64,000 nt of DNA from an uncultured virus (IMG/VR IMGVR_UViG_3300011114_001057) (taxonomy: Duplodnaviria > Heunggongvirae > Uroviricota > Caudoviricetes), in IMG/VR virus record IMGVR_UViG_3300011114_001057; one strand, written 5' to 3'. The notes under the pieces were generated by a model. It was not told where the DNA came from. It ran no database searches and was given only the letters and a program-made list of their open reading frames with translations. The position numbers and the translations under genes are program-made. Shown one piece after another: positions 710-48,169 of the stretch; position 1 is the stretch's first letter, and each line of letters begins with the position of its first letter.

Positions 710-1681
710 ATGGATCATTATGCGACGTTGGGTTTGAAGCGTACAGCCTCACTTGACGAGATAAAGAAGGCATATCGCCAACTTGCAAAGAAATGGCACC
801 CGGACAAGAACGGAGGAAGTTTAGAGGCTGAAGATAATTTCAAAAAAATATCTGACTCCTATACTATACTCTCTGACCCAATCAAGAAGAAGCAGCACGA
901 TGATCGATCGAGCCAGTCCTTTAAACACGGATTTGATGACTTCGTTAATGGCTTTTCAGGCACACAATTTAACGATTGGCAAAAAAGAAACGGTGATAGA
1001 AATAAAAAGCAACAAGGAAGAACTGCTGGAACTTATCGAACACCTGAATATTTGGACATAACTATAGAGTCATATGTAACTCTTCGTGACGCATTTATTG
1101 GAAAAAAGATCGAGTTAGAATTTAGTCGTAAAAAAATACACTATAATAGTGCAACTGACTACTTTTTAGAGAATGAAGAGAAAACTATAGCTTTTGATTT
1201 TGACTTGACTAAGATGACTACTGCAATAAAAGAAGATGCAGGTAAATACACAACAACTGTTCGACTTTCTAAGCTAGGAAATGAAGACTTACAAAAAATA
1301 ACTAATTTTTGGGGAGAAGTGGAGTCTATTCCTATGTGCGGTGATGCTTTAATAAAGATATGGTTAGTATTAGAGCCAAATATCTCAATCGAGGATAAGA
1401 ATATCATACACCGAATAGAGGCACCTTTTGTTTCTGCCATAATTGATAACAAGAAGATAAAGGTAGAGGGAGTAAACGGTAAGAAGTATGAAGCTAGCCT
1501 AAATTACCCTAAAAACCTAAGTAAGATAGAATTCTCAGTCAAAAACGAAGGACTTGCTTTATCTAAAACAGAAAGGGGTAAGTATATAGTAAAAATAGAT
1601 ATAATTACGCCCTCGTTTGAAGAAATGACAGATGAGATAAAATCTGAAATAAAAAATCTATTGAAACCTGCAAAAGAATAA
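710..1681 (+). CDS. dnaJ: DnaJ-family co-chaperone (J-domain plus C-terminal domain, no zinc finger)
   Basis: N-terminal DHYATLG..EIKKAYRQLAKKWHPDKN J-domain with HPD motif. Confidence 0.85.
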   Translation: MDHYATLGLKRTASLDEIKKAYRQLAKKWHPDKNGGSLEAEDNFKKISDSYTILSDPIKKKQHDDRSSQSFKHGFDDFVNGFSGTQFNDWQKRNGDRNKKQQGRTAGTYRTPEYLDITIESYVTLRDAFIGKKIELEFSRKKIHYNSATDYFLENEEKTIAFDFDLTKMTTAIKEDAGKYTTTVRLSKLGNEDLQKITNFWGEVESIPMCGDALIKIWLVLEPNISIEDKNIIHRIEAPFVSAIIDNKKIKVEGVNGKKYEASLNYPKNLSKIEFSVKNEGLALSKTERGKYIVKIDIITPSFEEMTDEIKSEIKNLLKPAKE

Positions 1682-5472: not shown

Positions 5473-5805
5473 ATGATAGAAGACATAAAAATAATTCACC
5501 TAAAGAGTAACGCACAACAGCTTGAGACCTGGATTGCTATGTTAAATGGCGAAATCATAGGTCATATCTATATGGAAAGAGAAGAGAACAATAAAATAAA
5601 ATTTCTAGACGCTTGGGTGCACGAAGAACATCGACTAAAAGGTGTATTTAGAAGACTATGGGATACTCGCTGGGAATACGTTAAGAGTAAATATGAAGGA
5701 TTTGTAGTGTATGCATGGTGTAAACCAGCATCTTTGACTCTTCTTTTAGAAAAAGGTTTTATCGCAGGCGAAACATGTACCTACGTTGAAAAATTAATTA
5801 ATTAA
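5473..5805 (+). CDS. GNAT-family acetyltransferase
   Basis: AWVHEEHRLKGVFRRL acetyl-CoA loop and LLEKGF. Confidence 0.7.
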   Translation: MIEDIKIIHLKSNAQQLETWIAMLNGEIIGHIYMEREENNKIKFLDAWVHEEHRLKGVFRRLWDTRWEYVKSKYEGFVVYAWCKPASLTLLLEKGFIAGETCTYVEKLIN

Positions 5806-14561: not shown

Positions 14562-15374
14562 TTATAAAACTAAGACAGTTGCTTCTGGTTTTAATTGACT
14601 CTGGTGATACCAGATAGTTCTGCCAGTACCGTCTACTTGTTTTTGAGACTTTCCATAGCATTGAATCCAACCCTCAAAACTAAATCTAGGTATCTTAAAT
14701 GGGCTCTCCCAGTCTTTTAACTGACCTCCACCTAATTGGTAGGCTTCTAATGGGATTCTTTTACATAATTCAGTAATCAATGGATTACTAGATAGGGCCT
14801 TCCTGGCTTCCTCAAATGGATCTTGAGAGGCACGATATAGTATCTCTGCCCTAAGATAATTACCTATCCCGTTAAAAAACCTTTGATCTAATAATAACTC
14901 ACAGATTGGTTTTGAAAAGACCGAACGACTGATGTTGTTATTGATGTTTTCAAGAAAACTTTCGTGTTCCTCGACTGGACATGGGCCACGACTCTGTGAC
15001 CAGTCCTTAACGACCTTCCATTTAGCAAAACGGCGAACGTCTACTAGACATAATGAGTCGAGCGCGACTGATCTAAAGATCATATGTACGTGATTAGGCA
15101 TTGCTTCGCCATTTTTGACATACACCCAGTGACCTGACATTCCCATTGAGCAGCTTATTTTCATAAATATCTCTTGGCCTTGAATGATTGATAGCATAAG
15201 CTCCTTACCTTTTGCATCGGCTTGGATACTAAATATCTGTAAATCACTAGGCATAGTTATCCCAAGTCCTCTATCCCAAGCACTCTCAGAAAATAAAAAA
15301 CTAGTAAAATTATTGGTTTCACAGACATCGTTTATATAGTCTGACATGATTCTTATTTCGGCTAATTCTGGCAT
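14562..15374 (-). CDS. nei: Fpg/Nei DNA glycosylase, NEIL1-like (no zinc finger)
   Basis: N-terminal MPE, KGKEL, GMSG, DVRRF and H2TH LLDQRFFNGIGNYLRAEILY; C-terminal GRTIWY without CxxC. Confidence 0.88.
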   Translation of the reverse strand: MPELAEIRIMSDYINDVCETNNFTSFLFSESAWDRGLGITMPSDLQIFSIQADAKGKELMLSIIQGQEIFMKISCSMGMSGHWVYVKNGEAMPNHVHMIFRSVALDSLCLVDVRRFAKWKVVKDWSQSRGPCPVEEHESFLENINNNISRSVFSKPICELLLDQRFFNGIGNYLRAEILYRASQDPFEEARKALSSNPLITELCKRIPLEAYQLGGGQLKDWESPFKIPRFSFEGWIQCYGKSQKQVDGTGRTIWYHQSQLKPEATVLVL

Positions 15375-17856: not shown

Positions 17857-18627
17857 ATGGAGATGTTTAACGCGCATAGACGAGATCTATTAGGATTTAA
17901 TGACTATATGGATCTTAAAAAACCAGGATTCGGTGGACCTGCTTCTGCAATTCAAGCAAGAGATGCAAAAGGTAAGTTAATTAACAAGAGCCCTAAGCTT
18001 TCTCAATATCGTAGAGTAGTTGAACGTGATCCTACATTTTCACATAAGGTATATGACTCTACATACAAAGCAATGACACATGACTTGGTATACAAACAAG
18101 AAGGTAAAAAACCTTTTACTTATCCAGATCCTTATTTTACAGCATATCCTACAGTTGAAGTAGGTGAACTTGATGAAAACACTAAAGTAGTTTCTTTCAA
18201 TACTTTTATAAACGAAGGGTACGATGATATTTCAAATGTAACTGCTAATCTTAGAAGTTATGAAGGTGGTTCAGATGAATATGGAATGAATCCTGACGAC
18301 TATAAGTCTAGTTGTTGTAGTTCGTCTATTGATGAAGACGCTTACTGTTCTAACTGCGGTAAAGACGATTCAAGAGAATACGGAATGCACTGTGGAATGA
18401 ATCCTGACCAATATGGAATGAATCCTGAAGAATGCGGAATGAATCCAGACGGTTATACGTCTAGTTGTTGTAATTCACCTATTGATGAATATAATTGTTG
18501 TTCTAGCTGCGGTAAAGAGGAGTTAGATGAAATGGGAATGAGTCCTGAATTTTCAGATGATCCAGATAATCCATTAGGTTTAAGTAAAGAGGAGATGGAT
18601 AAATTCCTTGCTGACTTAGATTCTTAA
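17857..18627 (+). CDS. Hypothetical late protein with Cys-rich duplicated modules
   Basis: Likely ATG at 17857; internal SFNTFINE; GMNP repeats and two SSCC..C..CGK modules. Confidence 0.65.
   Translation: MEMFNAHRRDLLGFNDYMDLKKPGFGGPASAIQARDAKGKLINKSPKLSQYRRVVERDPTFSHKVYDSTYKAMTHDLVYKQEGKKPFTYPDPYFTAYPTVEVGELDENTKVVSFNTFINEGYDDISNVTANLRSYEGGSDEYGMNPDDYKSSCCSSSIDEDAYCSNCGKDDSREYGMHCGMNPDQYGMNPEECGMNPDGYTSSCCNSPIDEYNCCSSCGKEELDEMGMSPEFSDDPDNPLGLSKEEMDKFLADLDS
18277..18549 (+). repeat. Coding repeats: (Y/C)GMNP(D/E) units and a duplicated SSCC-x-IDE-x-CSxCGK block
   Basis: ggaatgaatcc occurs four times; tctagttgttgta occurs twice. Confidence 0.8.
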
Positions 18628-18646
18628 TATTAACAGTAGTAATAAA

Positions 18647-19084
18647 CTATACTATCGACTCTTCTGTAAGTATTTTCATCTTAGCTGGATCTAATATTTC
18701 TAGCTTAGGATTATTAATTAACTCAAAGTCTTCTTCTATTTCTTTTGATGGAATCATGAAATAGCTAAATTCTAAATCGAAATATTCTTCATTAATAAAA
18801 TCTATTGAATTTAGAACTGTGCTTATAGATAAATTAGTGTTTAGATAAATTATTCTAGTATATTTCTTGTTCTTTACTTTGATTGCTTTATCTAGTAGCT
18901 TTTTAACTTCGTAATTTAGCAAAAAAGATTGAACTTTATTTGGCATTAAAAATCGAGTGTTAAATTTGTCTCTAACTATTTTAGTGACATTTAGAAGATA
19001 ATCAGACTTACTTTTTTTGTTAAAAGCTCCTATGAAACTCTTGTATTCTCTAACGAATATAACATCAATTTTTCTATTTTCCAT
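18647..19084 (-). CDS. Hypothetical protein
   Basis: ORF in an operon with dCMP deaminase. Confidence 0.6.
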   Translation of the reverse strand: MENRKIDVIFVREYKSFIGAFNKKSKSDYLLNVTKIVRDKFNTRFLMPNKVQSFLLNYEVKKLLDKAIKVKNKKYTRIIYLNTNLSISTVLNSIDFINEEYFDLEFSYFMIPSKEIEEDFELINNPKLEILDPAKMKILTEESIV

Positions 19085-19086
19085 TT

Positions 19087-19506
19087 TTAAATTCCCAAGT
19101 GGATGACATCAATATTTGCCTCCCTTAATATTTTTACACCAGAAATGTCTCTGTATTCTTCCTTGTATATGACTCTTTTTATTCCTGATTGAATTATCAG
19201 TTTTGAACAGTCTTTACATGGAGAATAAGTTACATATAAGGTTGAACCTTCTGTATTTTGAGTTGATTTTGCTACCTTTAACATAGCATTAGCCTCAGCA
19301 TGTAAAACATACCAATTAGTGTTACCGTTAGCGTCTTCACAGTCGTTTGCAAAGCCTTTAGGTGTCCCATTAAAGCCATCTGAAATTATAGTACCATCCT
19401 TGACGATAAGTGCACCTACTTTCTTGCGTTTACAGCAAGACAGAGTAGACCACACAGTTGCCATTTCAAGGTATGTCAAGTGATATTTTAGATCCTTTTG
19501 ATTCAT
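19087..19506 (-). CDS. dCMP deaminase
   Basis: KKVGALIVK, GFNGTP, HAEANA and SPCKDC Zn motifs. Confidence 0.92.
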   Translation of the reverse strand: MNQKDLKYHLTYLEMATVWSTLSCCKRKKVGALIVKDGTIISDGFNGTPKGFANDCEDANGNTNWYVLHAEANAMLKVAKSTQNTEGSTLYVTYSPCKDCSKLIIQSGIKRVIYKEEYRDISGVKILREANIDVIHLGI

Positions 19507-19696
19507 TCTTTTTGTTTAATGGTTTATTAAGTAAAGGCCCAACTATAATTAAATTAAGTATTAATTGAATAGCTAACCATTGTATATATGTTATATCCAC
19601 TTTGAATATAGTATTCAAACCAGTCCAAATGTATACATACGTACAGAGTAGTGCAGTTATAAAGAAAGCAGCAACCTTTGTGATAAATTGTCTCAT
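19466..19696 (-). CDS. Small two-TM membrane protein
   Basis: Two hydrophobic segments; ATGA overlap with the upstream gene. Confidence 0.5.
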   Translation of the reverse strand: MRQFITKVAAFFITALLCTYVYIWTGLNTIFKVDITYIQWLAIQLILNLIIVGPLLNKPLNKKNESKGSKISLDIP

Positions 19697-20583
19697 GAGT
19701 TTAAGTTATAGTTTAAGTTATTTTTTATCCAGTTCATTAGTTCATCTCCCATTCTTTCAGAAACATCATTTTGAGTAGAGAATAGCCTATTAAATAATGG
19801 AGATGGCTTTCCTTGAACAGAAATCAATTCTTCTCTTACTTTAGGAATGTTTAATGGAGCAAATGGTTCTCTTATCATTCTTTCTACGAGGCCAAAGTGT
19901 CTCTGATATAAGTGAAAAGAGTTTGCAATGTGAGTATAGGTACCTAGTTCTAAATCCTTAAAGTCTTCTCCGCCATGTAGTACTAGATGAAACAGCATTT
20001 GAGATTGTAGGGTAGCAAAGAATGCAATATCTGTAGGAAGACCTAAAATAACGTCATTACTTCTCATACTTACTGTAAAATTCAATTTATTGTTACGTAT
20101 TTGAAATATTCCATACATTGTACAAACAAAGTCCTTGTTTCCTTCACGTTGATGAGTGGGTAAATTAAAATGTAGAACTGCTTGGCGGCTATCTTTATCC
20201 TTTTTTAAGGATTCAAATGCCCAGTTATATTGAGTAAACTGATGTTCGTTAGTATTTGTAAAGAGCAGGTGACCATATGAAGAGTTTACTGTCCCGTCTT
20301 CATTTTGGATGGATTCCCAAAACTTAGCAAACTTTGCAATATATTCAACATCGTTTCTTCCCATAAAGTACCAAAGAAGTTCAGCTGCAATATATTTCCA
20401 TTGAGAAGAACGAACTGAATTTTGATAAAGACAAGAAAGAGGATTGGTGATGACTAGAGCAACATCACAATTTTCTTTGATTTTCATATCCCTAGGTTGA
20501 GTAAAATACTCAGGGCACATTAGTAGATCAGAAAGACTCTCCTTGTAGGCACCAGCAAATGTTTCAGATTTGTATGTTAACAT
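19693..20583 (-). CDS. Thymidylate synthase-superfamily enzyme, dCMP hydroxymethylase (gp42)-like
   Basis: AELLWY, DSRQAV, DFVCT (catalytic Cys), MRSNDVILGLPTD (Asp at the Asn177 position) and GTYTHIANSFHLY. Confidence 0.8.
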   Translation of the reverse strand: MLTYKSETFAGAYKESLSDLLMCPEYFTQPRDMKIKENCDVALVITNPLSCLYQNSVRSSQWKYIAAELLWYFMGRNDVEYIAKFAKFWESIQNEDGTVNSSYGHLLFTNTNEHQFTQYNWAFESLKKDKDSRQAVLHFNLPTHQREGNKDFVCTMYGIFQIRNNKLNFTVSMRSNDVILGLPTDIAFFATLQSQMLFHLVLHGGEDFKDLELGTYTHIANSFHLYQRHFGLVERMIREPFAPLNIPKVREELISVQGKPSPLFNRLFSTQNDVSERMGDELMNWIKNNLNYNLNS

Positions 20584-20591
20584 ATAATTAT

Positions 20592-20620
20592 ATTATATTA
20601 ATAAAAAGCAAAAAGGTTTT
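20592..20620 (-). promoter_or_regulatory. Early/middle-type promoter AAAACC-N15-AATATAAT
   Basis: Consensus match immediately upstream of the TS-like gene. Confidence 0.6.
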
Positions 20621-20628
20621 AAATAAAA

Positions 20629-22299
20629 TTAGATCTTTACTATTTCCATGTCTGAAAAGTGATCTACTTGATTGACTATTATTCTATAATCAAAGAACTC
20701 TTCAGGCAAGGCTTCATGCGAAACGACAAAGATTGTCATATTATACTTTATAGCATACTCCTTCAAGACGGAGATCGCTTTATACACATTATTTTTATCT
20801 AATGAACTAAATATTTCATCTAGAAACATGACATTCATTTGGCTATGTTTCATCTTAATGATCTCAATGAATGCTAATAATACTATTAAATTCATCTTTT
20901 TACGCTGTCCGCTAGAAAGGCTTTCAGGTGAGATATCTAAGCCTAAATAAGTTATATGTGGATCAAATTCGTTGTCAAACTCAAAGGAAAACTTAAATTC
21001 AAGTTTTTCAGATATTTCATGAATCCTAGCATTAAGAGTAGGTATGATCTTATCAATCATTGACTTCTTTATCCCAGAATCAGAAAGAAGGTCATCTAAG
21101 TTTAAATATAGTATCTTTTTATCAGTAAAAGAGGAAAGATTTGTATTATCGTCTTCGATCTGTCTCTTGGTGTTTTCAATAATTTGAGAAATAGATTCTG
21201 AAGAATCGTCGGAGTCGTCCTTCTTTTGAGATTCAGCAAGTGATTTTTTAAGTGAGGTGAGGTCAGCTAAAATTGAATACTTTTTGGAATCAAATTCTCC
21301 CTTTTCCAATAAAAGATCAGTTACTTGTGAGTTCAAGTCAGACGCACTCTTCTGTTTTTCAGGAAGTTGTTCTCTTAGTTCTTCTAGCTTTTCTTCGATT
21401 TTTGACTTTACGTCTAGTGATGATTCTGACTGTAGGTCGTTTAGGCAGTGTGGACACCTATTTTTAGAATAGACATCTAGTTTTGATGAAAGATCCCTGA
21501 TCCCATTTTTTATCTTGTTAACGTCCTCATCTGCTACTCTAGATTTTTGGCTAATTAGATCAGTCTTGGTTTTAAATTCAGAAAGAAGAATGGTATGATC
21601 GTCTGCTTCTTGCTGTTTTTCTAAAATCCTAGAGGTTAAGTCGTCTTCAATCTTTTGTTTTTTAACAGTTAGTTTTTCTTTTAGCTCACTTAACTGATTT
21701 ATGTATGTTTCTAAATTAGACCTGTTTCTAGAAATAGCAAGTTCTAATAGGTCAGATTCACTTTTAATTTCACGTAAAGATTCTTTAACTTTGGCTCTCA
21801 TGTCAGAGAGAATATCTATTCCAAATATTCTATCCACTATCTTACGCTTATCGTCCTTTGTTAGGTTAACAAATGACTTAAAATCATCAAATGAAAGGCT
21901 AATCGTGTTACAAAAAACGCTAAATGGAATCTTAGATAGTTCTTCCTCAATAAATTCATCAACTTTTCTTTTATCTGGTAGATTGAAAACACTACCATTT
22001 ATCTTAATGTTACTAAAATTAGGATCTATTCCTCTATCTAGCTCTATTTGCTCGCCTAAAGTAGTTTCAAACTTAATGTTTGTGTATGCATTCTTGTTTA
22101 TCCAATTAGGTATGTCTTTCATCTTACGAATGGCAGACCTGCCGTAAATGGAAACAGTTAAAGCCTCCTTAATCGAAGACTTACCAGCTCCATTTTCGCC
22201 CTCAACCAGTATTAACTTAGGACCATCAGTAAATTTGAAAGTCTGTAGTTTGTTTCCATAAGATAGTATGTTTTTATAAGAAAACTCTAATAGCTTCAT
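20629..22299 (-). CDS. gp46: SbcC/Rad50-like recombination ATPase (gp46)
   Basis: GENGAGKS, coiled coil with CPHC hook, LSSGQ and FLDEIFSSLD. Confidence 0.92.
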   Translation of the reverse strand: MKLLEFSYKNILSYGNKLQTFKFTDGPKLILVEGENGAGKSSIKEALTVSIYGRSAIRKMKDIPNWINKNAYTNIKFETTLGEQIELDRGIDPNFSNIKINGSVFNLPDKRKVDEFIEEELSKIPFSVFCNTISLSFDDFKSFVNLTKDDKRKIVDRIFGIDILSDMRAKVKESLREIKSESDLLELAISRNRSNLETYINQLSELKEKLTVKKQKIEDDLTSRILEKQQEADDHTILLSEFKTKTDLISQKSRVADEDVNKIKNGIRDLSSKLDVYSKNRCPHCLNDLQSESSLDVKSKIEEKLEELREQLPEKQKSASDLNSQVTDLLLEKGEFDSKKYSILADLTSLKKSLAESQKKDDSDDSSESISQIIENTKRQIEDDNTNLSSFTDKKILYLNLDDLLSDSGIKKSMIDKIIPTLNARIHEISEKLEFKFSFEFDNEFDPHITYLGLDISPESLSSGQRKKMNLIVLLAFIEIIKMKHSQMNVMFLDEIFSSLDKNNVYKAISVLKEYAIKYNMTIFVVSHEALPEEFFDYRIIVNQVDHFSDMEIVKI

Positions 22300-23408
22300 T
22301 GGTCGTAATGTTTAGTGTTTCTAAGAGAATCATATATCTCTTTAAATTTATTAGTTATTTGTGAATTTTGATATTCTGGGAAGTTCATCTCAATTAGTCT
22401 TTCCTCTAATATACTAAAAATGTTGTATTCATAGGTAGAATCAAGTTCAACTTGACTTCTAGATTTTATCTGTTCCAATGAATATGATGAAAACTCTAGT
22501 CGACGATGCCCTAGGTTCTTTATTAATTCAGTAAACCTAGATATTGAGAATCTTTGTGAAAGACTTGCCTCCATTGTGACGTCAACAAAATTATTATTGA
22601 ATATCTTAGCTAATTCAGTTAAATTTAGGTCAAGCAGTTCGGTCACATCAAACTTTAGATGTTTTGGTGAAAGTGTATTAGGAACGAATTTTTCTTTTAT
22701 TTTTGTGTTAGAAAGATCTAGTACATAAAAGCCTTTTTCGTTGCCCCTATCCCCACGGTCCATTTCAAATGGAGTTCCAACATAAAGAACATTACCGTTT
22801 TCCTGACGTATGTGAATGTGTCCTGAGTAGATTCTCTTGAATCCTTTAATATCTTCTTGTTCTAGTCCATGTTCAAGCTTAGTTGCTTTATTTAGGCTAA
22901 AACCTTTAAAGTCAGTGTGGCAAAATACATAGTCAGATGAAGAGTTTTTAGCTATCACGTCTTTTAGAGCATCTAGATTTTCTATCCAAGGCAACATTAA
23001 AAAATTATGATTACCCATCTTTAATTGAGCTGGTTTATCAAATATATGAAAGTTTTCAAAAATTCTATCAAATCCCTCTAGTGAATGAGTATCTGTTCTG
23101 TCTTTGTAGTACACATCATGATTTCCAAGTATGACATAAACTCCTTTCTTAAACTTTTTAGCGAATGTCTCAGCAATCTTTATGGAAAGCTTATAGATTC
23201 GAGTATTAGTAGATTCCCTTACGTGATTCCAGTCTCCAACTTGAACTAAGATATCGGTTGCTGGATCAAAGCCTTCTTCGTCTACTTGCTTAAGGAAAAA
23301 GTTTACTAAATAGTCTTGTTGTATTTCTGACCATTCTAATGAGTTGTTTCTTAAACCTAAATGTAGATCTCCGAGTACAAATATTTTCCTAACTTTTTCT
23401 AATATCAT
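22296..23408 (-). CDS. gp47: SbcD/Mre11-like nuclease (gp47)
   Basis: GDLHLG, GDW, GNHD and SGHIH metallophosphoesterase motifs; adjacent to gp46. Confidence 0.92.
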   Translation of the reverse strand: MILEKVRKIFVLGDLHLGLRNNSLEWSEIQQDYLVNFFLKQVDEEGFDPATDILVQVGDWNHVRESTNTRIYKLSIKIAETFAKKFKKGVYVILGNHDVYYKDRTDTHSLEGFDRIFENFHIFDKPAQLKMGNHNFLMLPWIENLDALKDVIAKNSSSDYVFCHTDFKGFSLNKATKLEHGLEQEDIKGFKRIYSGHIHIRQENGNVLYVGTPFEMDRGDRGNEKGFYVLDLSNTKIKEKFVPNTLSPKHLKFDVTELLDLNLTELAKIFNNNFVDVTMEASLSQRFSISRFTELIKNLGHRRLEFSSYSLEQIKSRSQVELDSTYEYNIFSILEERLIEMNFPEYQNSQITNKFKEIYDSLRNTKHYDQ

Positions 23409-23632
23409 AGTTGATTAGCTAACTGGTCCAGGTCTATTACTCTAATTATGCTTTTAAGTTTAGCTAAGGCTTCATCTAATTCAGTAGGGGTAGCAAATGA
23501 ATACGTTTGAGTCGTATCACCGGCTGATACTATCAAGTCGGTACCTGGTGAGCCAGCTTCCTCTATGCTGTATACATTATCTAGGTTCAAGTATATAGAA
23601 CCAGTCGAGTGAGTTAGCTTGATAAAAGTCAT
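23405..23632 (-). CDS. Hypothetical protein
   Basis: Tightly packed ORF in the replication operon. Confidence 0.6.
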   Translation of the reverse strand: MTFIKLTHSTGSIYLNLDNVYSIEEAGSPGTDLIVSAGDTTQTYSFATPTELDEALAKLKSIIRVIDLDQLANQL

Positions 23633-23633
23633 A

Positions 23634-24188
23634 TTAGTGTATCTTTTTTTTTTGCATTTTGCCGTCTAAGAAATTGTATTTTTTATCTAGTTCAATTAAC
23701 AATAATTCTTGAGCGTCAGTGTCTAGGGAATCAAATATCTTCTTGTAATCAAAACCTGAAAAAGAAGAAATTGCTTCTAAGACATAAATTGGGCTATAGA
23801 AGCTAGTTGTGCCTTTTGATTTGTCTAAAGAATTATGAATCTTATTAAAGATAACACTTATTTCTTCCTTAGCAAACTTATTTTTAAAAGTTAGTGATTC
23901 ATCCATTTTATAAAAAACTTTATTATTTAAAAAGTCGTCGCTTTTTATAAAATCAAATATTCCATCTAAAATAAACTTAGCTTCTAAATTTTCTTCATAT
24001 TCATAGACGTCTTTTAAGTAAGAGTCAGAATAGTCAGCTACTACTGATATTTTTTTAGAAAACTCATATTCTTCGGTGTCCTTTAGACCTTCACCAGTAT
24101 TATACCGATTGTTAAATATTTTATCTTCTTTGTGTACTAACTCTTCTGAGTCGTTTAAGTTTTCGTTTGTGTCTTCATCATTTAACAT
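23634..24188 (-). CDS. Hypothetical protein
   Basis: Tightly packed ORF in the replication operon. Confidence 0.65.
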   Translation of the reverse strand: MLNDEDTNENLNDSEELVHKEDKIFNNRYNTGEGLKDTEEYEFSKKISVVADYSDSYLKDVYEYEENLEAKFILDGIFDFIKSDDFLNNKVFYKMDESLTFKNKFAKEEISVIFNKIHNSLDKSKGTTSFYSPIYVLEAISSFSGFDYKKIFDSLDTDAQELLLIELDKKYNFLDGKMQKKKIH

Positions 24189-28716: not shown

Positions 28717-30144
28717 TTATTTTTTTAAATTTTTAATGTTTTTTATCTCACCTTGAGTTTTTATTCGCTCGTTGTACAACTTAGTTAATATAGATCGAGC
28801 AACAGAATCAGTTTTTCCGCTGAATGCTGTGTTATTTTTAGTGTGTATATCTTTTTCATCAAGTTTTATTTCGTCTAACTTTCCAATATATGTATCTGGA
28901 GATATATTGAACTGTATCTGTATGTTAGGATACATTGATGAAAAATCGTAACATGCAATTGCACCATAATACCCTGGAACAGGGTCCTTTACGTATGCAC
29001 CCTCATATGTAGCATTAACGTCATTTGTTTCTCCCCAAGGAAGCTTCATCATTTTTAAGTTCTTGTTTAGGAACTCTCGACACATAAGGACCTCAGCTAT
29101 GTAAACTGGACTAAATACTTTGTTGATTTCTACTTGTGCAACATTTGCCATTGAAAAAGCAACGTCTAAAATAGAGAGCTTGTCCTCTATCAACTTAACT
29201 AAGATAACGTCGATTACATTGTACATAGTAAACAAATAAACATCTTTTTGAAATTCTATAAAGGAGTCATACTTATGTTTAAGTTTAGCAGTTCCTAAAA
29301 CTAGTCCTGAAATATAATCTAGTTTATAGTTTTCAATTACTTTGTAAGGTTTAAGTTTTTCAAAGACTTGCATGTAATCTAAAACACCTAGGTGAGTAGG
29401 AACCTTTACTTTTGAAAAAGTAGTTTTAGTTGGCATGTTTTGTACTGGATCAATATTGATATTTTTTGCTCTATTCATCAAATATTTCCAGTCAAATTCA
29501 GTAACATTCCAGCCTGTAACAAAAGAAAGGTGAGGCATTACTTTGTGAAAAAAGAATTCCATCAGCTCTTTTTCAGTAGTAAAAAACTTATATTTGATTT
29601 TGAAGTCTTGTTCAAATAGACTAGCATCTTCAGGTTTAAGAGGTACTGTCTTTTTAAAATATTCATTAACTTCTTTTTCCATTCTATCTATTTGACTTTG
29701 CTCTAATCCATCAGGTTGATCTTCAGCAGTTAACATAGATAGTATATAAGTTACATTGTCTTCATTACAAAAAGATATTAGCCCGACTGGCATTTTAGCT
29801 TTTTCTGGTTCTGGAAAGGAGTCATCTATCAACTTAATCTCAATATCAAGATAGGTCTTCTTAGGATAGTTATCAAAATTATAAATGAGCTCAGTTTCTT
29901 CAGGTGTAAACTTTTCTTTGATTAGCTCCTGTATTCTAAATTGATTGACCCACTGCCCTTGCGTTGAGCTCTTCTTTATGTACTTGCCATTCCAATTTCT
30001 AGTAGTAGTTGGCGAAGTTGATTCTACCCAATTAAATACTTCATGGTCAACTAACCGCTTTTTAATAAAATCGATCTTTCCTTTATCATTATAATAAGAG
30101 ATCATTAATTGGTTGTCGTGAGTTACTTCAGAACCTACTATCAT
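28717..30144 (-). CDS. gp43A: Family-B DNA polymerase, N-terminal subunit (3'-5' exonuclease plus motif A); split polymerase
   Basis: YLDIEI, GWNVTEFDWKYL, YNVIDV, YEGAYVKDP and YDFSSMYPNI; ends in the fingers without motifs B and C. Confidence 0.85.
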   Translation of the reverse strand: MIVGSEVTHDNQLMISYYNDKGKIDFIKKRLVDHEVFNWVESTSPTTTRNWNGKYIKKSSTQGQWVNQFRIQELIKEKFTPEETELIYNFDNYPKKTYLDIEIKLIDDSFPEPEKAKMPVGLISFCNEDNVTYILSMLTAEDQPDGLEQSQIDRMEKEVNEYFKKTVPLKPEDASLFEQDFKIKYKFFTTEKELMEFFFHKVMPHLSFVTGWNVTEFDWKYLMNRAKNINIDPVQNMPTKTTFSKVKVPTHLGVLDYMQVFEKLKPYKVIENYKLDYISGLVLGTAKLKHKYDSFIEFQKDVYLFTMYNVIDVILVKLIEDKLSILDVAFSMANVAQVEINKVFSPVYIAEVLMCREFLNKNLKMMKLPWGETNDVNATYEGAYVKDPVPGYYGAIACYDFSSMYPNIQIQFNISPDTYIGKLDEIKLDEKDIHTKNNTAFSGKTDSVARSILTKLYNERIKTQGEIKNIKNLKK

Positions 30145-30368: not shown

Positions 30369-30836
30369 TTAATAGCCTCGAGCTTGACGATCTATGTTTT
30401 CTTTATTTTTTGCCATGTACATGTTATACATTTCTTGCGGTGTCATCCCAATTGAGATAGCCATATTCATGAAAAAGTGTAGAATGTCTATTATTTCAAA
30501 TTTACACTCAAGTTGATCACGTCCAGTTAGATCAGAAAATTTTAAGTTATCATACGTATGATAGTCTTTTTTCCAATACTTCCAAACTGCATTGCCGCTG
30601 CCATCTTCTATTCCGCCTAGTGCATCAGTTGCTTCATGAATCTCATCCAATAATGCATGAGTGTTTGAGTGCCAAAAATGCATAACTTCCCTAAGTGACA
30701 TTTTAGAAAAATCGTGACCGTAAACATTGGTTTGAGTGTCCCTTTGAAGATTTAAGATATCACCTAAGGTATCACTACTTTTAGTGTAAAGATCGATGAT
30801 CTCAAGACTAGCACATTGATTATCAGTATTTGCCAT
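30369..30836 (-). CDS. All-alpha dUTPase/dCTPase (T4 gp56-like)
   Basis: LDEIHEATD, WKYWKK, KFEIIDILHFF and YMAKNKENIDRQARGY. Confidence 0.82.
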   Translation of the reverse strand: MANTDNQCASLEIIDLYTKSSDTLGDILNLQRDTQTNVYGHDFSKMSLREVMHFWHSNTHALLDEIHEATDALGGIEDGSGNAVWKYWKKDYHTYDNLKFSDLTGRDQLECKFEIIDILHFFMNMAISIGMTPQEMYNMYMAKNKENIDRQARGY

Positions 30837-37936: not shown

Positions 37937-38209
37937 TTAAGCAGGTGTCTTGGTTGAGTCTACTAATTGTTGACGTAAACCTTTAGCTCCTTCTTGGATC
38001 TTAGTCATTTCAGACTTAATTGCTGGATGCTTGATCGCTTTGCGAACATCTTGCATTTTTTTCTTAAGTCGATTACCTGCGCTTCTAACACCTTTTACGT
38101 AAAACTTTTGAGCATCTTCCTCAGCGGATTCGATGATCTCAAGAATTGGCGAAAAGATTGTTGTTTGTGCGTTGATAATATCAGCTTTTAATTTTTCAAA
38201 ATCATTCAT
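37937..38209 (-). CDS. Hc1/histone H1-like small basic protein (Bacteroidota type)
   Basis: EEDAQKFYVKGVRSAGNRLKKKMQDV..AKGLRQ resembles the D..KF..KGN.AAG.R.RK.MQ pattern. Confidence 0.65.
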   Translation of the reverse strand: MNDFEKLKADIINAQTTIFSPILEIIESAEEDAQKFYVKGVRSAGNRLKKKMQDVRKAIKHPAIKSEMTKIQEGAKGLRQQLVDSTKTPA

Positions 38210-39838: not shown

Positions 39839-41644
39839 TTAACCGTCGCAAGATAAACAGTCAATGGTAGCACGAGCAGCAATGTCTCCTCTAAGTACTG
39901 ATTCTGTTCTCATGTAATATAAGGTCTTAACTCCTAAGTTATATGCTTCAAGATGAACTTGATTGATAAATTTAGGCTCAGCTTCAGTTGGAAAAGCCAA
40001 GTTTAAGGAAACTGCTTGATCAATATATTGCTGTCTGATTCCGGCTTGTCTTACTAATTCAAGTTGATTGATCTCCTTAAAGGTAAGATATACATTTTTA
40101 AGTTGAATATAATTATCTTGTTCAATAGGAGCAAGTTTTGCTCGTTTAGAAGAAGTTATTGGATTTGATGTTTCTCCAAGTTTAACCCAATAGTTATCTA
40201 AGAAGTCTAGTCCTTGAACAGAGCCCCCGTCTTGTAATATCTGATTCCAAGTATCATCAGTATTATATCCAAGTTTTTCTAAAACCTTTTCTAAAGTAGG
40301 GTTTTTACGAATAAAAGTTCCTTTAGCAGTCTGCTCGGTAAAAACGTTTGCTGCCCAAGGCTCAATGCCAGCAGAAACATTACCTGCAAGCTTTGAATTG
40401 GAAACAGTTGGTGCAATTGCTCGTAAATGAGTGTTCCTCATTCCTGTACCAGCGCACCATAACGGCTCTCCTAATTCTCTTGCCATATCTCTAGAAGCCT
40501 GTTCACTCTCAATTTTTAATTGCGAAAATATCTTTCTTGTCTCAAACTGAGCTGATAATGAGTCAAATGGGATATTTTTGTTTTGTAGATATGTATGCCA
40601 TCCCAAAACTCCTAAACCTAATGCTCTACCTTTTTGAGCAGATCTGACTGCATTATCAAATCCTCTCATGTATTTTGCTCTTTGAATAAACTCATCAAGG
40701 ACTCCATCTAGAAACCAAGTAGCTGTGTAAATAAGGTCAGAATCTTTCCACTCCTCATATCTTGCAAGGTTTAGGGAGGAAAGACAGCAGACGAATGAGT
40801 GATTTTCATCAGTATGTAGGGTGATTTCGCTGCAGATATTTGTCATGTATACTTTAAGTCCATTCTTCTTGTATGCTTCTGGGTTCTGTCGGTTTATATT
40901 ACCTTTATACATGATATAAGGTTCTCCAGTAGACTTTCTTTTCTTAAGGACTGCAGTCCAGCGTCGTCGGGCTTCTTTGTCACCTTGATCCAATCTATTC
41001 ATGAAATCGTCAGAAACTACGACACATTGGTGAAGGCTTAAACACTGACGATTCATGTCTCCTCTAGGCTCTCTGATCTCTAGCCAGTCCCAAAAGTCTC
41101 CATGTTCAATATCAATATTAACTGATGCAGCTCCTCTTCTGACTGAGCCTTGGTTTGTAGCAAGAACAGCCGAATCATATATCTTGCAGAATGGAACTAC
41201 TCCATCTGATGTTCCATTTTGTGAAATTACTGTACCTGCAGGTCTGATTTGATTTACTCCTATTCCTACTCCTCCGCCGTGTTTAGCAAGAAGCATCATT
41301 TCTAGATTTTTACTACCTATATCTACTATTGAGTCAGCAACGTCTATTCCAAAACATGAAATAGGTAGACCCCGTTCAGTGCCAGTGTTTGAGAAAACGG
41401 GTGTTGCTAAGTTTAACCAACCTTTCCACATATAATCAAAAAACTTTGAAGCTAATTCTGGTTTTTTAAGTCGCTTAGCTACAGTAGTAGCAACTCGCCA
41501 ATAAGCGTCCTTTGGAGTCTCACCTTCAAGTAAATATCCTCTAGAAACGGTTTTGACGTAAACTTCAGTATTTGCCCAAACTGGGAAGTGTACACCTATT
41601 TCCCATCCTAAATGTTCTCCTTGATTAATCTCTGTGTCTTCCAT
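39839..41644 (-). CDS. nrdA: Class I ribonucleotide reductase alpha subunit (no ATP cone)
   Basis: LPISCF, GGGVG, QGSVRRGA, TNICSEI, VCCLSSLN, AIAPTVS, KTLYY and C-terminal CLSCDG. Confidence 0.95.
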   Translation of the reverse strand: MEDTEINQGEHLGWEIGVHFPVWANTEVYVKTVSRGYLLEGETPKDAYWRVATTVAKRLKKPELASKFFDYMWKGWLNLATPVFSNTGTERGLPISCFGIDVADSIVDIGSKNLEMMLLAKHGGGVGIGVNQIRPAGTVISQNGTSDGVVPFCKIYDSAVLATNQGSVRRGAASVNIDIEHGDFWDWLEIREPRGDMNRQCLSLHQCVVVSDDFMNRLDQGDKEARRRWTAVLKKRKSTGEPYIMYKGNINRQNPEAYKKNGLKVYMTNICSEITLHTDENHSFVCCLSSLNLARYEEWKDSDLIYTATWFLDGVLDEFIQRAKYMRGFDNAVRSAQKGRALGLGVLGWHTYLQNKNIPFDSLSAQFETRKIFSQLKIESEQASRDMARELGEPLWCAGTGMRNTHLRAIAPTVSNSKLAGNVSAGIEPWAANVFTEQTAKGTFIRKNPTLEKVLEKLGYNTDDTWNQILQDGGSVQGLDFLDNYWVKLGETSNPITSSKRAKLAPIEQDNYIQLKNVYLTFKEINQLELVRQAGIRQQYIDQAVSLNLAFPTEAEPKFINQVHLEAYNLGVKTLYYMRTESVLRGDIAARATIDCLSCDG

Positions 41645-41665
41645 TTTATTTTCTTTAATTTGATT

Positions 41666-42673
41666 TTAACTAAATAATGAGTCCTCGTCCCAGTTTTCGT
41701 TTTCTCCTGCTTTTGCATAATCAGTGGATCTAATTGCAAAGAAATCAGTATGGGTATGTCCGCCAGTAAGATGATAAAACCAGTCTAAGCTAGAGGCTGC
41801 TGCCTCATCATAATCAAATATTGATTCATATCCTAATTCTACTAGTTTTTCATTTGCTCTCTTCTTGATAAACTCTTTTAAATCATTTGCTGTAAGATTC
41901 TCAAGGTCTCCCATTTCGAACATTTTATCAATAAATTTAAGTTCCATTTCTACTATTAAAGCAGCTGCTTCTTCTACTTGAACTCTAACACTACTTCCTA
42001 ATTCTGGAAAATCTTCGCACATATGTCTAAAGAGTTGGCAACCCATCTTTGAGTGTAAAGATTCATCTCTAACTGACCATTTCATCTGTTGACCTACACC
42101 TTTAAGTAAGTTTCTCATTTGAAAAGAATAAAGAACTGCAAATGATGAATATAGTGATACTCCCTCAGCAAATGCTGAAAATATAGCTAGTGATCGCGCA
42201 ACGTCCTTACGTGCCTCAGTTGAAGTTGCAAGATCATCATGAGTGTAATCATTAGTTGTTTTTACTAGGAATTCAAATTTTTCAGCAATAGTAGGCTCAT
42301 GTAAGAAAGCTTTAAAGTCTTCAAGGCCGAGAGTCTCATTAAGATATGAGTATGCAGTTGCATGGATTGTTTCTTGTGAACCAAACATCATTGCCATTTG
42401 TCTTATTTCATGTTTAGGAAACCACTTGGTAACTAGACCAGTCCAGTAATCTGAGACTGCACATTCAGTTTGAGCAAAACCCAATAGAATATTCCCAACT
42501 AGGTTTTTTTCAGCTATTGTTAATTTTTCATGCCAATCTTTAACATCTCCTTGCATGGAGATCTCCGTATGTAACCAAAAAGCTTGTGCTTGTTTTAACC
42601 AGCCTTCAGTATAGTATACTGGGTATTCAAAAGGCTTATACTCAATTCTTTCTTGGAACATTTTTGATGACAT
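41666..42673 (-). CDS. nrdB: Class I ribonucleotide reductase beta subunit
   Basis: KPFEYP, FWLHTE, QETIHATAY, EGVSLYSSF, RDESLH and DFFAIRSTDY. Confidence 0.95.
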   Translation of the reverse strand: MSSKMFQERIEYKPFEYPVYYTEGWLKQAQAFWLHTEISMQGDVKDWHEKLTIAEKNLVGNILLGFAQTECAVSDYWTGLVTKWFPKHEIRQMAMMFGSQETIHATAYSYLNETLGLEDFKAFLHEPTIAEKFEFLVKTTNDYTHDDLATSTEARKDVARSLAIFSAFAEGVSLYSSFAVLYSFQMRNLLKGVGQQMKWSVRDESLHSKMGCQLFRHMCEDFPELGSSVRVQVEEAAALIVEMELKFIDKMFEMGDLENLTANDLKEFIKKRANEKLVELGYESIFDYDEAAASSLDWFYHLTGGHTHTDFFAIRSTDYAKAGENENWDEDSLFS

Positions 42674-44053: not shown

Positions 44054-46461
<2,408 letters not shown>

Positions 46462-46467
46462 TAGTTG

Positions 46468-47199
46468 TTATGCTTGATATGCATAATCTTTTACTATGGA
46501 AAGTCCAGAAAGTTTTAATAAAATATTAGTAGTAGTCATGACATCACGTTCACAATACTTGGTGATCTTTTCTATTTCACCTTTCCAAAAGTAAGAATTG
46601 ACTTCTGACCCTTGAATTTCTTCTTTTGGAGAGTCTAAGCCAATTGATGTTGCTAATAGATCAAGTGAAGTAAATCCTTCTTGCCATGCACCGAAACTCC
46701 AAACTTCAGATGTATCGATAAACGGCATCTCCCAAGGTTTAAGGTTGTGGATTAGCAGGCCTTTAGGTAAAGAATAACCATTAATTAAGAGTCTTTTACA
46801 CATCATAGGTACGTCAAATCTCTTAATGTTATGTCCGACAAACTTTAAGTTAAAGAACTTTTCAAAGACTTTGTGAATTCCTTCTAGTACTTCTATTTCC
46901 GAATCACTAGAATAGCTCTTAACTATTAAAGAGGGTCCTTCTTCTGTCCAACTGAGTCTTGCAAAAGTAGCACAGACTATTCTAGCAAATTCAGGAGTAA
47001 GTGCAGCCTTTTCTACGTATAGTTCCTCGTCGGTTAAGTATTTGTTTTCTTCAAAACGTGATCGTAAGTAATCGCATCGTTTAGACCAGAGTTCAGCTTT
47101 CTTCTTGTTTGCAAGAAGCAGCAAGTCTAGTGATTCATATTCTGCAGCAGTTTCAAGATCAAAGAATACTGCTTTTATTAGTTCGGATTGGCTATACAT
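46468..47199 (-). CDS. PolB-like stand-alone 3'-5' exonuclease
   Basis: FFDLET, GHNIKRFDVP, KPWE, DTSEVWSFG and YCERDV. Confidence 0.82.
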   Translation of the reverse strand: MYSQSELIKAVFFDLETAAEYESLDLLLLANKKKAELWSKRCDYLRSRFEENKYLTDEELYVEKAALTPEFARIVCATFARLSWTEEGPSLIVKSYSSDSEIEVLEGIHKVFEKFFNLKFVGHNIKRFDVPMMCKRLLINGYSLPKGLLIHNLKPWEMPFIDTSEVWSFGAWQEGFTSLDLLATSIGLDSPKEEIQGSEVNSYFWKGEIEKITKYCERDVMTTTNILLKLSGLSIVKDYAYQA

Positions 47200-47206
47200 A
47201 TTATTT

Positions 47207-48169
47207 TTATACTAGATTTAGATTTTCAGTTTCCTCAAAAGAAAATGGAATAGGTGCATCAAGCAGCTCAGTGCTTTCTCGATAGCGAAGAATGGATAGA
47301 TCTTTAGCTTTGGCTTCGATTTCAATATCGACAGTTAGACCATAGCTTGGAATCTTTTCATAGATATAATCAGAATGTGAACGATTGATGACTGATGAAT
47401 CTTCATAAAGAGCCTTTGAACTTGAATAGTGCTGTAGGGGAGTAAAACCCTGCCAAGTAGAAGCGGCTAGATGAGCTGCCTCGCTTGCAGTAAGATCCCC
47501 TGTACAAAACCGGTGATGTAGGTGATCAAAAGTAACAGGACAGCCGACTACACGATAGACTCCATGATAGAGATCCTTGACTGAAAACTGTGATTCCTTA
47601 TCATCGTTTTCCACAACAAGTCTCGCTTGCGTGTGGGGGGAAAGACGAGAGAAGTTTTCGCAAAACCTAGCGAGTGCAGATTCCTTGTCACCATATGAAC
47701 CACCGATATGAATGTTGATAGGTGAACGATAATCTCTAGGCAGACCCATTAGATTCATAATATTTGAGTGCTGATCTAGATCATATATTGTCTTTTCAAC
47801 AATACTATCGGTTGGTGAAGCCAGAACATCGAATTGACCAGGATGAAAAGATATACGCATGTTGTTTTCATCTACGTATTTTCCAACCTTTGCGGCCACT
47901 GCTGCTATCTCATAAAAATCAGGTAAGTCACTGATTAAGTACTCACTCATCCAAGGAAAAAGATCAGAAGACATACGATATACCCAAATATCGTTTTGTT
48001 TATTCCACTCTAGTATCTTTAATAGATCACGCAGGTTGGCTAAGGCAAGTTGACTTGCGTAGGCAATTCCTTTTTCTTGCCAAGTTTTTTTTATCATTCC
48101 TCGATTGGTTGTTATTCCCTCGTCCTTGAGAGAAAGATTAATACAGCAATATCCTAGTCGTACACTCAT
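47207..48169 (-). CDS. uvsE: UV-damage endonuclease (UvsE/UVDE)
   Basis: RLGYCCIN, YRMSSDLFP, RISFHPGQF, LVVENDD, FDHLHH, HSDY and IEAKAK. Confidence 0.92.
   Translation of the reverse strand: MSVRLGYCCINLSLKDEGITTNRGMIKKTWQEKGIAYASQLALANLRDLLKILEWNKQNDIWVYRMSSDLFPWMSEYLISDLPDFYEIAAVAAKVGKYVDENNMRISFHPGQFDVLASPTDSIVEKTIYDLDQHSNIMNLMGLPRDYRSPINIHIGGSYGDKESALARFCENFSRLSPHTQARLVVENDDKESQFSVKDLYHGVYRVVGCPVTFDHLHHRFCTGDLTASEAAHLAASTWQGFTPLQHYSSSKALYEDSSVINRSHSDYIYEKIPSYGLTVDIEIEAKAKDLSILRYRESTELLDAPIPFSFEETENLNLV

Follow-up and report, generated by a model that had tools for sequence, protein, structure and literature searches.

A thymidylate synthase homologue encoded beside a dCMP deaminase in a large aquatic phage lineage is a predicted T4-type dCMP hydroxymethylase

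The record IMGVR_UViG_3300011114_001057, from an uncultured myovirus, contains a tight run of genes on the minus strand in which gp47-like and gp46-like nuclease genes are followed by a gene for a thymidylate synthase (TS) homologue, a small open reading frame (orf76), a gene for a deoxycytidylate (dCMP) deaminase and a conserved gene (orf145). We analyzed a 64,000-nucleotide stretch of this record (the window), which represents about a quarter of a genome of roughly 250 kb, a size based on CheckV estimates for related IMG/VR contigs. A sequence-only reading of the window had proposed that the TS homologue carries Asp at the position of Asn177 of Escherichia coli ThyA and hence acts on dCMP, that its gene forms an operon with the deaminase gene, that a gp56-like pyrophosphatase is encoded at position 30369, and that no canonical thyA or thyX is present in the window. 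The sequence observations among these were borne out by the analyses presented below. The same reading had left undecided whether the genome carries modified cytosine or the pair of enzymes provides an alternative route to thymine or 5-hydroxymethyluracil. The first of these proposals stands and can be narrowed, most likely to 5-hydroxymethylcytosine (5hmC), whereas the second appears to be unlikely. Thus, our preferred interpretation, to which we assign a probability of roughly 0.7, is T4-style synthesis of 5hmC-containing DNA, in which the role of the deaminase is to supply a thymidylate synthase of the phage or of its host with dUMP.

Table 1. Features of the window considered in the text
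Feature	Position	Strand	Remarks
TS homologue, predicted dCMP hydroxymethylase (T4 gp42 type)	19693..20583	-	296 aa; PF00303
dCMP deaminase, zinc-dependent, small phage type	19087..19506	-	139 aa; PF00383
T4 gp56 dCTPase/dUTPase homologue (all-alpha NTP pyrophosphatase)	30369..30836	-	155 aa
orf76, hydrophobic	19466..19696	-	76 aa; between TS and deaminase genes, overlaps both
orf145, conserved protein, last gene of run	18647..19084	-	145 aa
gp46/gp47-like (SbcC/SbcD) nuclease genes	20629..23408	-	directly upstream of TS; Pfam SMC_N / SbcC_Walker_B / Rad50 hook, Metallophos
Class I ribonucleotide reductase, large and small subunits	39839..42673	-	phrog_84 E 9.5e-156, phrog_86 E 1.5e-74; upstream supply of dNDPs
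Topoisomerase II, gp41-like helicase, UvsX, split family-B polymerase	window		Pfam/PHROG
gp55-like sigma factor, GroEL/GroES, DnaJ	window		Pfam/PHROG

The TS homologue matches the TS family of Pfam (PF00303; 85.4 bits, E 4.8e-24), and it falls far under every NCBIfam cut-off for ThyA equivalogs (at best 70 bits, as compared with 327 bits). When proteins of the PDB were ranked by sequence, the highest match was T4 dCMP hydroxymethylase (1b49, E 1.6e-21), followed by MilA, the CMP 5-hydroxymethylase of mildiomycin synthesis (1.2e-15), and then by thymidylate synthases (2.7e-13 and weaker). The string DFVCT...MRSNDVILGLPTD corresponds to residues 151-185 of the protein. In the HMMER alignment to 1b49 the Asp of LPTD is paired with Asp179 of the T4 enzyme and the Cys of DFVCT with its Cys148, and in a MAFFT alignment to E. 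coli ThyA, Asp185 of the window enzyme lies on Asn177 and Cys154 on Cys146. Thus, Asp151, Asp177 and Asp185 in the protein's own numbering are the equivalents of ThyA positions 143, 169 and 177, and these residues, together with Glu68, Ser101-x-Tyr103, Arg133, Cys154 and Ser175, are the key residues of the enzyme.

Replacement of Asn177 by Asp is reported to switch the substrate of TS to dCMP (PMC8670742, PMC13326640), in agreement with the substrate originally proposed. That the protein is nonetheless an ordinary thymidylate synthase acting on dUMP, in a phage whose DNA is unmodified, can hardly be correct. It is true that the protein has the TS fold and that its relatives are labelled "thymidylate synthase" in databases, but it has Asp in place of Asn177, Asp in place of Leu143 and Thr in place of His147, it scores poorly against the ThyA equivalogs, and some of the relatives encode a true ThyA, with the residues LCHDN, in addition.

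To what product does the sequence point? We aligned the TS homologue with references of known product, taken from annotated records, and compared the columns for E. coli ThyA positions 143, 146, 147, 169 and 177. The resulting signature is D-C-T-D-D both for the window enzyme and for T4 gp42, as compared with N-C-P-D-D for the dCMP methylase of Xp12, E-C-T-N-D for RB69 gp48 (a 5-hydroxy-dCMP synthase), D-C-N-D-N for the dUMP hydroxymethylase of SP-10, and L-C-H-D-N for E. coli ThyA. Hydroxymethylation has been associated with an acidic residue (Asp or Glu) at the third position ahead of the catalytic Cys in combination with Ser-x-Tyr, and T4 dCMP hydroxymethylase (dCH) bearing D145N is reported to be inactive (PMC6400193). 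The window enzyme displays both elements, namely Asp151, which is located three residues before the Cys, and Ser101-Ser102-Tyr103. It differs in this respect from the Xp12 type of dCMP methyltransferase, in which position 143 is not acidic.

Two further kinds of enzyme share part of this signature. The flavin-dependent 5-hydroxy-dCMP synthases RB69 gp48 and DLP3 gp80 likewise combine Asp177 with an acidic position 143, but they are marked by D169N (PMC13326640); at this column the window enzyme retains Asp (its own Asp177, in RSND), whereas RB69 gp48 has RSQN. MilA (5JNH, 5B6D) has Asp at both 143 and 177 (PMC13326640), and K133R and A176S are reported to move it toward dCMP (PMC6400193). In the PDB search alignment the window enzyme has Arg133 and Ser175 at the columns of MilA Lys133 and Ala176 and so lacks the pair that favours ribonucleotides; a deoxynucleotide substrate is therefore to be expected. 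The settings differ as well, in that the window gene lies in a phage replication module and the MilA gene in an antibiotic cluster. As judged by its sequence, then, the TS homologue has every published hallmark of T4 gp42 (Asp at 177, Asp before Cys, Ser-x-Tyr, and Asp169). Indeed, it shares with the T4 enzyme (1B49, 1B5D, 6A9A) the TS fold, the catalytic Cys and equivalents of Asp179, Asp145, Ser94-x-Tyr96, Glu60 and Asp171, and its gene is similarly found among T4-type replication genes, next to gp46 and gp47. The two proteins are nevertheless only about 27-30% identical, and the window enzyme has a C-terminal extension of about 55 residues that is absent from gp42.

The key residues are strongly conserved. 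Glu68, Ser101, Tyr103, Arg133, Asp151, Cys154, Arg174, Ser175, Asp177 and Asp185 were invariant in 68 aligned family members, and both DCTDD and N-S-x-Y-G were present in all 80 related IMG/VR loci. Among 140 representatives (those of at least 200 amino acids among the best 150 of a search of 1.84 billion proteins) the signature was DCTDD in 134, the other six having DCADD (two), DCTDN (two), DCCDD (one) or DCSDD (one). In a quick maximum-likelihood tree of 43 rows, comprising every fourth representative and eight references, the window clade (SH-aLRT 99) and a clade that included T4 gp42 were sisters (93), and the Xp12 enzyme joined ThyA (98). The AF2 structural model of the TS homologue had a pLDDT of 97.3. 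Its top match in Foldseek, and the best full-length structural match, was MilA (E 8.7e-21, TMq 0.75 over about 300 columns), in an alignment that included the C-terminal extension; for T4 dCH the TMt was 0.74-0.77.

The deaminase gene lies 186 nt downstream of the TS gene on the same strand. This arrangement was conserved in 79 of the 80 loci, at distances of 180-436 nt, and the contig of the 80th ends at this point. Given that the residues of the TS homologue are retained in all 80 relatives and that the deaminase gene is downstream in 79, the pairing is not a matter of chance. The deaminase matches PF00383 (82.8 bits) and phrog_174 (E 2.4e-52), and its translation shows the HAE and PCKDC zinc motifs. 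Its matches in the PDB were 4p9c, a 138-amino-acid dCMP deaminase of cyanophage S-TIM5 (E 3.1e-40), T4 Cd (1vq2, E 1.4e-24) and 7fh4 (E 1.5e-17), the last of which is described as the dCMP/dCTP deaminase of PBCV-1 in a recent preprint (10.1101/2024.12.05.627091).

That preprint (10.1101/2024.12.05.627091) bears directly on what such pairs of genes may do. It reports that 104 of 149 deaminases encoded on cytosine-modified contigs lie at most 3 kb from a TS gene, that a preference for 5-methylcytosine (5mC) or 5hmC is frequent among deaminases encoded next to TS genes of the Asp177 type, and that five of seven tested deaminase-linked TS homologues made 5-methyl-dCMP. It also proposes deamination of 5-methyl-dCTP to dTTP, as in earlier work on Xp12. 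A route through deamination of methyl-dC or hydroxymethyl-dC is on record for phages of the Xp12 type. Applied to the window, this scheme would have dCMP converted to 5-methyl-dCMP, a genome containing 5mC, and a deaminase that generates dT nucleotides, with no need for a separate thymidylate synthase. The comparison with Xanthomonas phage Xp12 (MT664984) is a natural one: its enzyme shares Asp at 177, its deaminase gene also comes directly after the TS gene, and neither ThyA nor ThyX was found in the window or in G002, the longest close relative (70% complete). Yet we see only a slim chance that it applies. The window enzyme has Asp at 143 where that of Xp12 has Asn, and D145N abolishes hydroxymethylation by T4 dCH (PMC6400193); the Xp12 enzyme groups with ThyA in the tree and away from the window clade; the two deaminases are only 29% identical; and five relatives have a separate ThyA or ThyX. 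In addition, Xp12 has a dihydrofolate reductase (DHFR) gene in its operon, beside those for TS and the deaminase, whereas DHFR was found in none of five long relatives of the window, and tblastn with the Xp12 DHFR as query gave no match. A hydroxymethylase, which releases tetrahydrofolate, has no need of DHFR (PMC6400193). Taken together, the hydroxymethyl signature, the tree, the lack of DHFR, the distance from the Xp12 deaminase and the separate ThyA and ThyX genes argue against a methyl route.

A second possibility is that 5-hydroxymethyl-dCMP is made but that the deaminase acts on 5-hydroxymethyl-dC nucleotides, with the result that 5-hydroxymethyl-dU (5hmdU) replaces some or all of the thymidine. 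The persistence of the TS-deaminase pairing in 79 of 80 loci would fit such a scheme, as would the reports that 5hmdU was formed in vivo with seven of the 90 deaminases screened from the neighbourhood of such TS genes, that mSCD-B5 deaminates 5hmdCTP, and that deaminase selectivity is polyphyletic (10.1101/2024.12.05.627091). But in the account given there all seven of the 5hmdU-producing deaminases are linked to TS homologues of the methyl type. Moreover, among solved structures the window deaminase best matches 4p9c and T4 Cd, both of them dCMP deaminases of phages; the partner of gp42 in T4 is an ordinary deaminase of dCMP; and the relatives that have ThyA or ThyX evidently still make dTMP. 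We therefore regard replacement of thymidine by 5hmdU as very unlikely. The alternative route to thymine or hydroxymethyluracil suggested at the outset is thus without support in either form: the predicted product is hydroxymethylated, the deaminase is nearest to dCMP deaminases, and relatives have ThyA (three) or ThyX (two) besides.

The pathway that we favour, T4-style synthesis of 5hmC, also calls for an enzyme that keeps unmodified cytosine out of DNA. The product of the gene at 30369-30836 exhibits 32% identity to T4 gp56 over 167 columns (gp56 residues 5-171; E 5e-27), and it matches phrog_173 (E 1.6e-21) and PF08761 (dUTPase_2; 23.3 bits). As judged by this alignment, it is a true, full-length homologue of gp56. 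Thus, like T4, the window encodes a gp56 homologue and a dCMP deaminase in addition to the TS homologue. A comparable trio of TS, dCMP deaminase and all-alpha NTP pyrophosphatase is described for cytosine-modified metavirome contigs (MetaGPA: PMC8670742; 10.1101/2024.12.05.627091), whose modification state was measured.

We looked for other thymidylate synthases. Scans of the window's open reading frames against PHROG and Pfam revealed neither ThyA nor ThyX, and in a six-frame tblastn search of the window with E. coli ThyA, the canonical TS of a relative and the ThyX of a relative as queries, only the region 19780-20418 was significant. We also searched related records, 32 of them for PF00303 and 29 for ThyX (PF02511). 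Low-scoring TS homologues of the gp42-like kind (67-92 bits) were present in 25 records, and five of these had a further enzyme: three a canonical ThyA of 280-290 bits (G001, which is 81% complete and whose ThyA has the signature LCHDN, G003, and G029) and two a ThyX (G012 and the 462-kb genome LR756500.1). The lineage as a whole thus displays the T4 layout of gp42, cd and td, in which the genuine dTMP synthase is an accessory that can be dispensed with, although, unlike in T4, a phage td or thyX is found only in some relatives. Mutants of T4 lacking td use the thymidylate synthase of the host, and phages without an enzyme of their own can do so too.

Two of these relatives deserve comment. 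In LR756500.1 the Pfam match to ThyX (about 276.5-278.2 kb; L125/L126) is in two pieces about 1 kb apart within a single open frame of 577 amino acids, which suggests an insertion such as an intein. This genome has the TS homologue, and no deaminase homologue was found within 12 kb on either side of it. G018 (246 kb) has a short gp42-like homologue of 217 amino acids with DCTDD in a different neighbourhood (about 39.8-43.3 kb; L169), where it is flanked by a P-loop kinase-like open reading frame, a metallophosphatase gene and a trimeric-dUTPase-like open reading frame. In G018, then, the pathway is packaged in another way.

We propose the following scheme. Cys154 of the TS homologue would attack C6 of dCMP while Asp185 would read and protonate the cytosine, and methylene-tetrahydrofolate would donate one carbon. 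Asp151, with Ser101 and Tyr103, would then position the water that hydrates the exocyclic methylene, yielding 5-hydroxymethyl-dCMP (hm-dCMP) and tetrahydrofolate. Phosphorylated by a kinase, hm-dCMP would go on to enter DNA as 5hmC. Meanwhile, the gp56 homologue would break down dCTP and dCDP to dCMP, thereby keeping plain cytosine out of DNA and feeding both branches of the pathway. The deaminase would convert part of the dCMP to dUMP, from which a phage or host thymidylate synthase would produce dTMP for a genome that is 67% A+T (the GC content of the window is about 33%). The scheme draws on homology, residue signatures, conserved gene order, a predicted fold and the separate ThyA and ThyX genes of relatives.

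Several considerations weigh against this scheme. The rules by which we predict the product of the TS homologue derive from few characterised enzymes, and the tree, being the outcome of a quick search and containing several long reference branches, is supporting evidence only. Among the active deaminases found beside Asp177-type TS genes, 34 of 56 are reported to have preferred 5mC, and this preference is polyphyletic (10.1101/2024.12.05.627091); homology to an ordinary dCMP deaminase therefore does not fix the substrate. A thymidylate synthase to receive the dUMP was not found in the part of the genome seen, which consists of the 64-kb window, about 2.5 kb of same-species sequence to its left and a 94%-identical contig to its right, out of about 250 kb. 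Nor was ThyA or ThyX present in G002, whose TS homologue is 69% identical to that of the window, or in the more distant G018 (92% complete). Finally, with regard to companion enzymes for hydroxymethylcytosine in DNA, the gp56 homologue is present but neither the window nor two long relatives, these being partial genomes, yielded a gp1-like kinase. Searches by tblastn (E at most 0.1) of the window, the 80 loci, G001 and G002 detected neither T4 gp1, the alpha- and beta-glucosyltransferases nor the RB69 kinase, in which respect the window differs from T4. Likewise, no deoxynucleoside monophosphate (dNMP) kinase or glucosyltransferase was recognized in Pfam scans of 126 open reading frames of G002 and of 140 of the 147 open reading frames of G001 without a counterpart in the window, or in a PHROG scan of 87 further open reading frames of G002 and six of the window. 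The step from hm-dCMP to hm-dCDP is consequently without an assigned enzyme.

The organization of the locus also sets it apart from T4, in that the TS gene is in an operon with the deaminase gene and two small conserved open reading frames. In T4, cd is not adjacent to the gene for gp42 but lies elsewhere in the genome. The gp46- and gp47-like genes are upstream of the TS gene in the same order in most related loci. A scan of positions 18400-23700 for promoters and terminators identified sites no more commonly than in shuffled sequences. The first of the two small genes, orf76, encodes a two-helix protein that diverges rapidly (29-67% identity where detectable) and had no match in Pfam or PHROG. 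A diverged counterpart could be recognized by tblastn in part of the 80 loci, with the gap of 180-436 nt between the TS and deaminase genes always maintained. We considered orf76 as an analogue of T4 Imm and rejected this idea, there being no similarity.

The second gene, orf145, directly follows the deaminase gene in 77 of the 80 loci and is highly conserved (mean column identity of 59% in 33 sequences). Its product is predicted to adopt a P-loop-kinase-like fold (AF2 pLDDT 77.6), and VIA-align matched it to a fungal RNA kinase (Z 9.2) and to T4 polynucleotide kinase (Z 8.8). The 120 best of its 633 relatives had no Pfam domain and no informative name. The protein was an obvious candidate for the missing dNMP kinase, but we rejected it: despite the kinase-like fold, strand 1 is joined to helix 1 by a loop of two residues, without a conserved Gly or Lys-Ser/Thr, and the Walker A motif G-x4-GK[ST] is not present. 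A scan of all open reading frames of the window for Walker A found the motif only in known ATPases.

Cytosine hydroxymethylation could in principle be only the first step of a longer pathway, in which a glycan cluster that extends beyond the left edge of the window would attach an unusual sugar to the hydroxymethyl group and orf145 would be a new kind of partner for the modified nucleotide; we consider this elaboration unlikely. The cluster itself begins at the edge of the window, where an open reading frame at 35-718 on the minus strand has weak MptE-like and sialyltransferase-like matches, and it can be followed leftward on a contig of the same species and in a relative with 84% identity (L128:10681-12808, L129:10681-20681). 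Its genes include a CMP-sugar cytidylyltransferase-like gene, several GT2 genes, a rhamnosyltransferase-like gene and WbqC, as well as genes for an epimerase/dehydratase, a hexapeptide acyltransferase, a DegT aminotransferase and UDP-glucose dehydrogenase. A cluster of 16 genes comparable to this one is present in G001 and absent from G002.

If T4-style synthesis of 5hmC is indeed the function of this locus, the window is a further example of the known anti-restriction replacement of cytosine in T4 and probably not of a new route to thymidine. The mechanism is not new; what is new is the presence of a set of the T4 gp42 type in a new and abundant lineage of aquatic phages. The T4 toolkit for cytosine replacement would thus extend to widespread large phages of aquatic environments, and the database label "thymidylate synthase" would be wrong as to function for the TS homologues of this lineage. 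Furthermore, DNA from phages of this lineage may prove resistant to restriction enzymes, to CRISPR tools and to certain kinds of library preparation. The hydroxymethylase, the deaminase, the small membrane protein and the kinase-fold protein constitute a testable set of genes for finding the missing step at hm-dCMP.

The rest of the window is filled by a T4-type replication and structural module, as revealed by PHROG and Pfam scans (Table 1). The capsid protein has its nearest counterparts in the Lak megaphages of Prevotella and in the uncultured phage LR756500.1, to whose protein it is 38.6% identical. Megablast of 20 kb of the window against 50,697 phage records yielded no match at the DNA level, and an exact 40-mer from the window had no match among metagenome contigs, whereas a protein-seeded scan of metagenomes recovered same-species contigs, the longest being 18.8 kb. 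Close relatives of the TS homologue were found in at least 290 IMG/VR stretches and at least 559 metagenome stretches, and its relatives at E of at most 1e-10 numbered 1021 proteins. The lineage is one of large, widespread aquatic phages, and its hosts are probably Bacteroidota. The main text of a recent paper on large aquatic "moraphages" of Bacteroidota contains no reference to thymidylate, to hydroxymethyl or to a deaminase (PMC12619734).

Finally, we note several other features of the window. Genes for an Fpg/Nei-type DNA glycosylase and a UvdE UV-damage endonuclease (14562-15374 and 47207-48169, both on the minus strand) are unusual in a phage whose DNA is probably modified at cytosine. 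The family-B DNA polymerase looks split into a polymerase part and a separate PolB-type 3'-5' exonuclease (28717-30144 and 46468-47199, minus strand), and G002 has a further DNA_pol_B fragment elsewhere (L105:12896-14332). Also encoded are a histone H1-like Hc1 protein, a small GNAT acetyltransferase, GroEL, GroES and DnaJ, at 37937-38209(-), 5473-5805(+), 44054-45703(-) and 710-1681(+).

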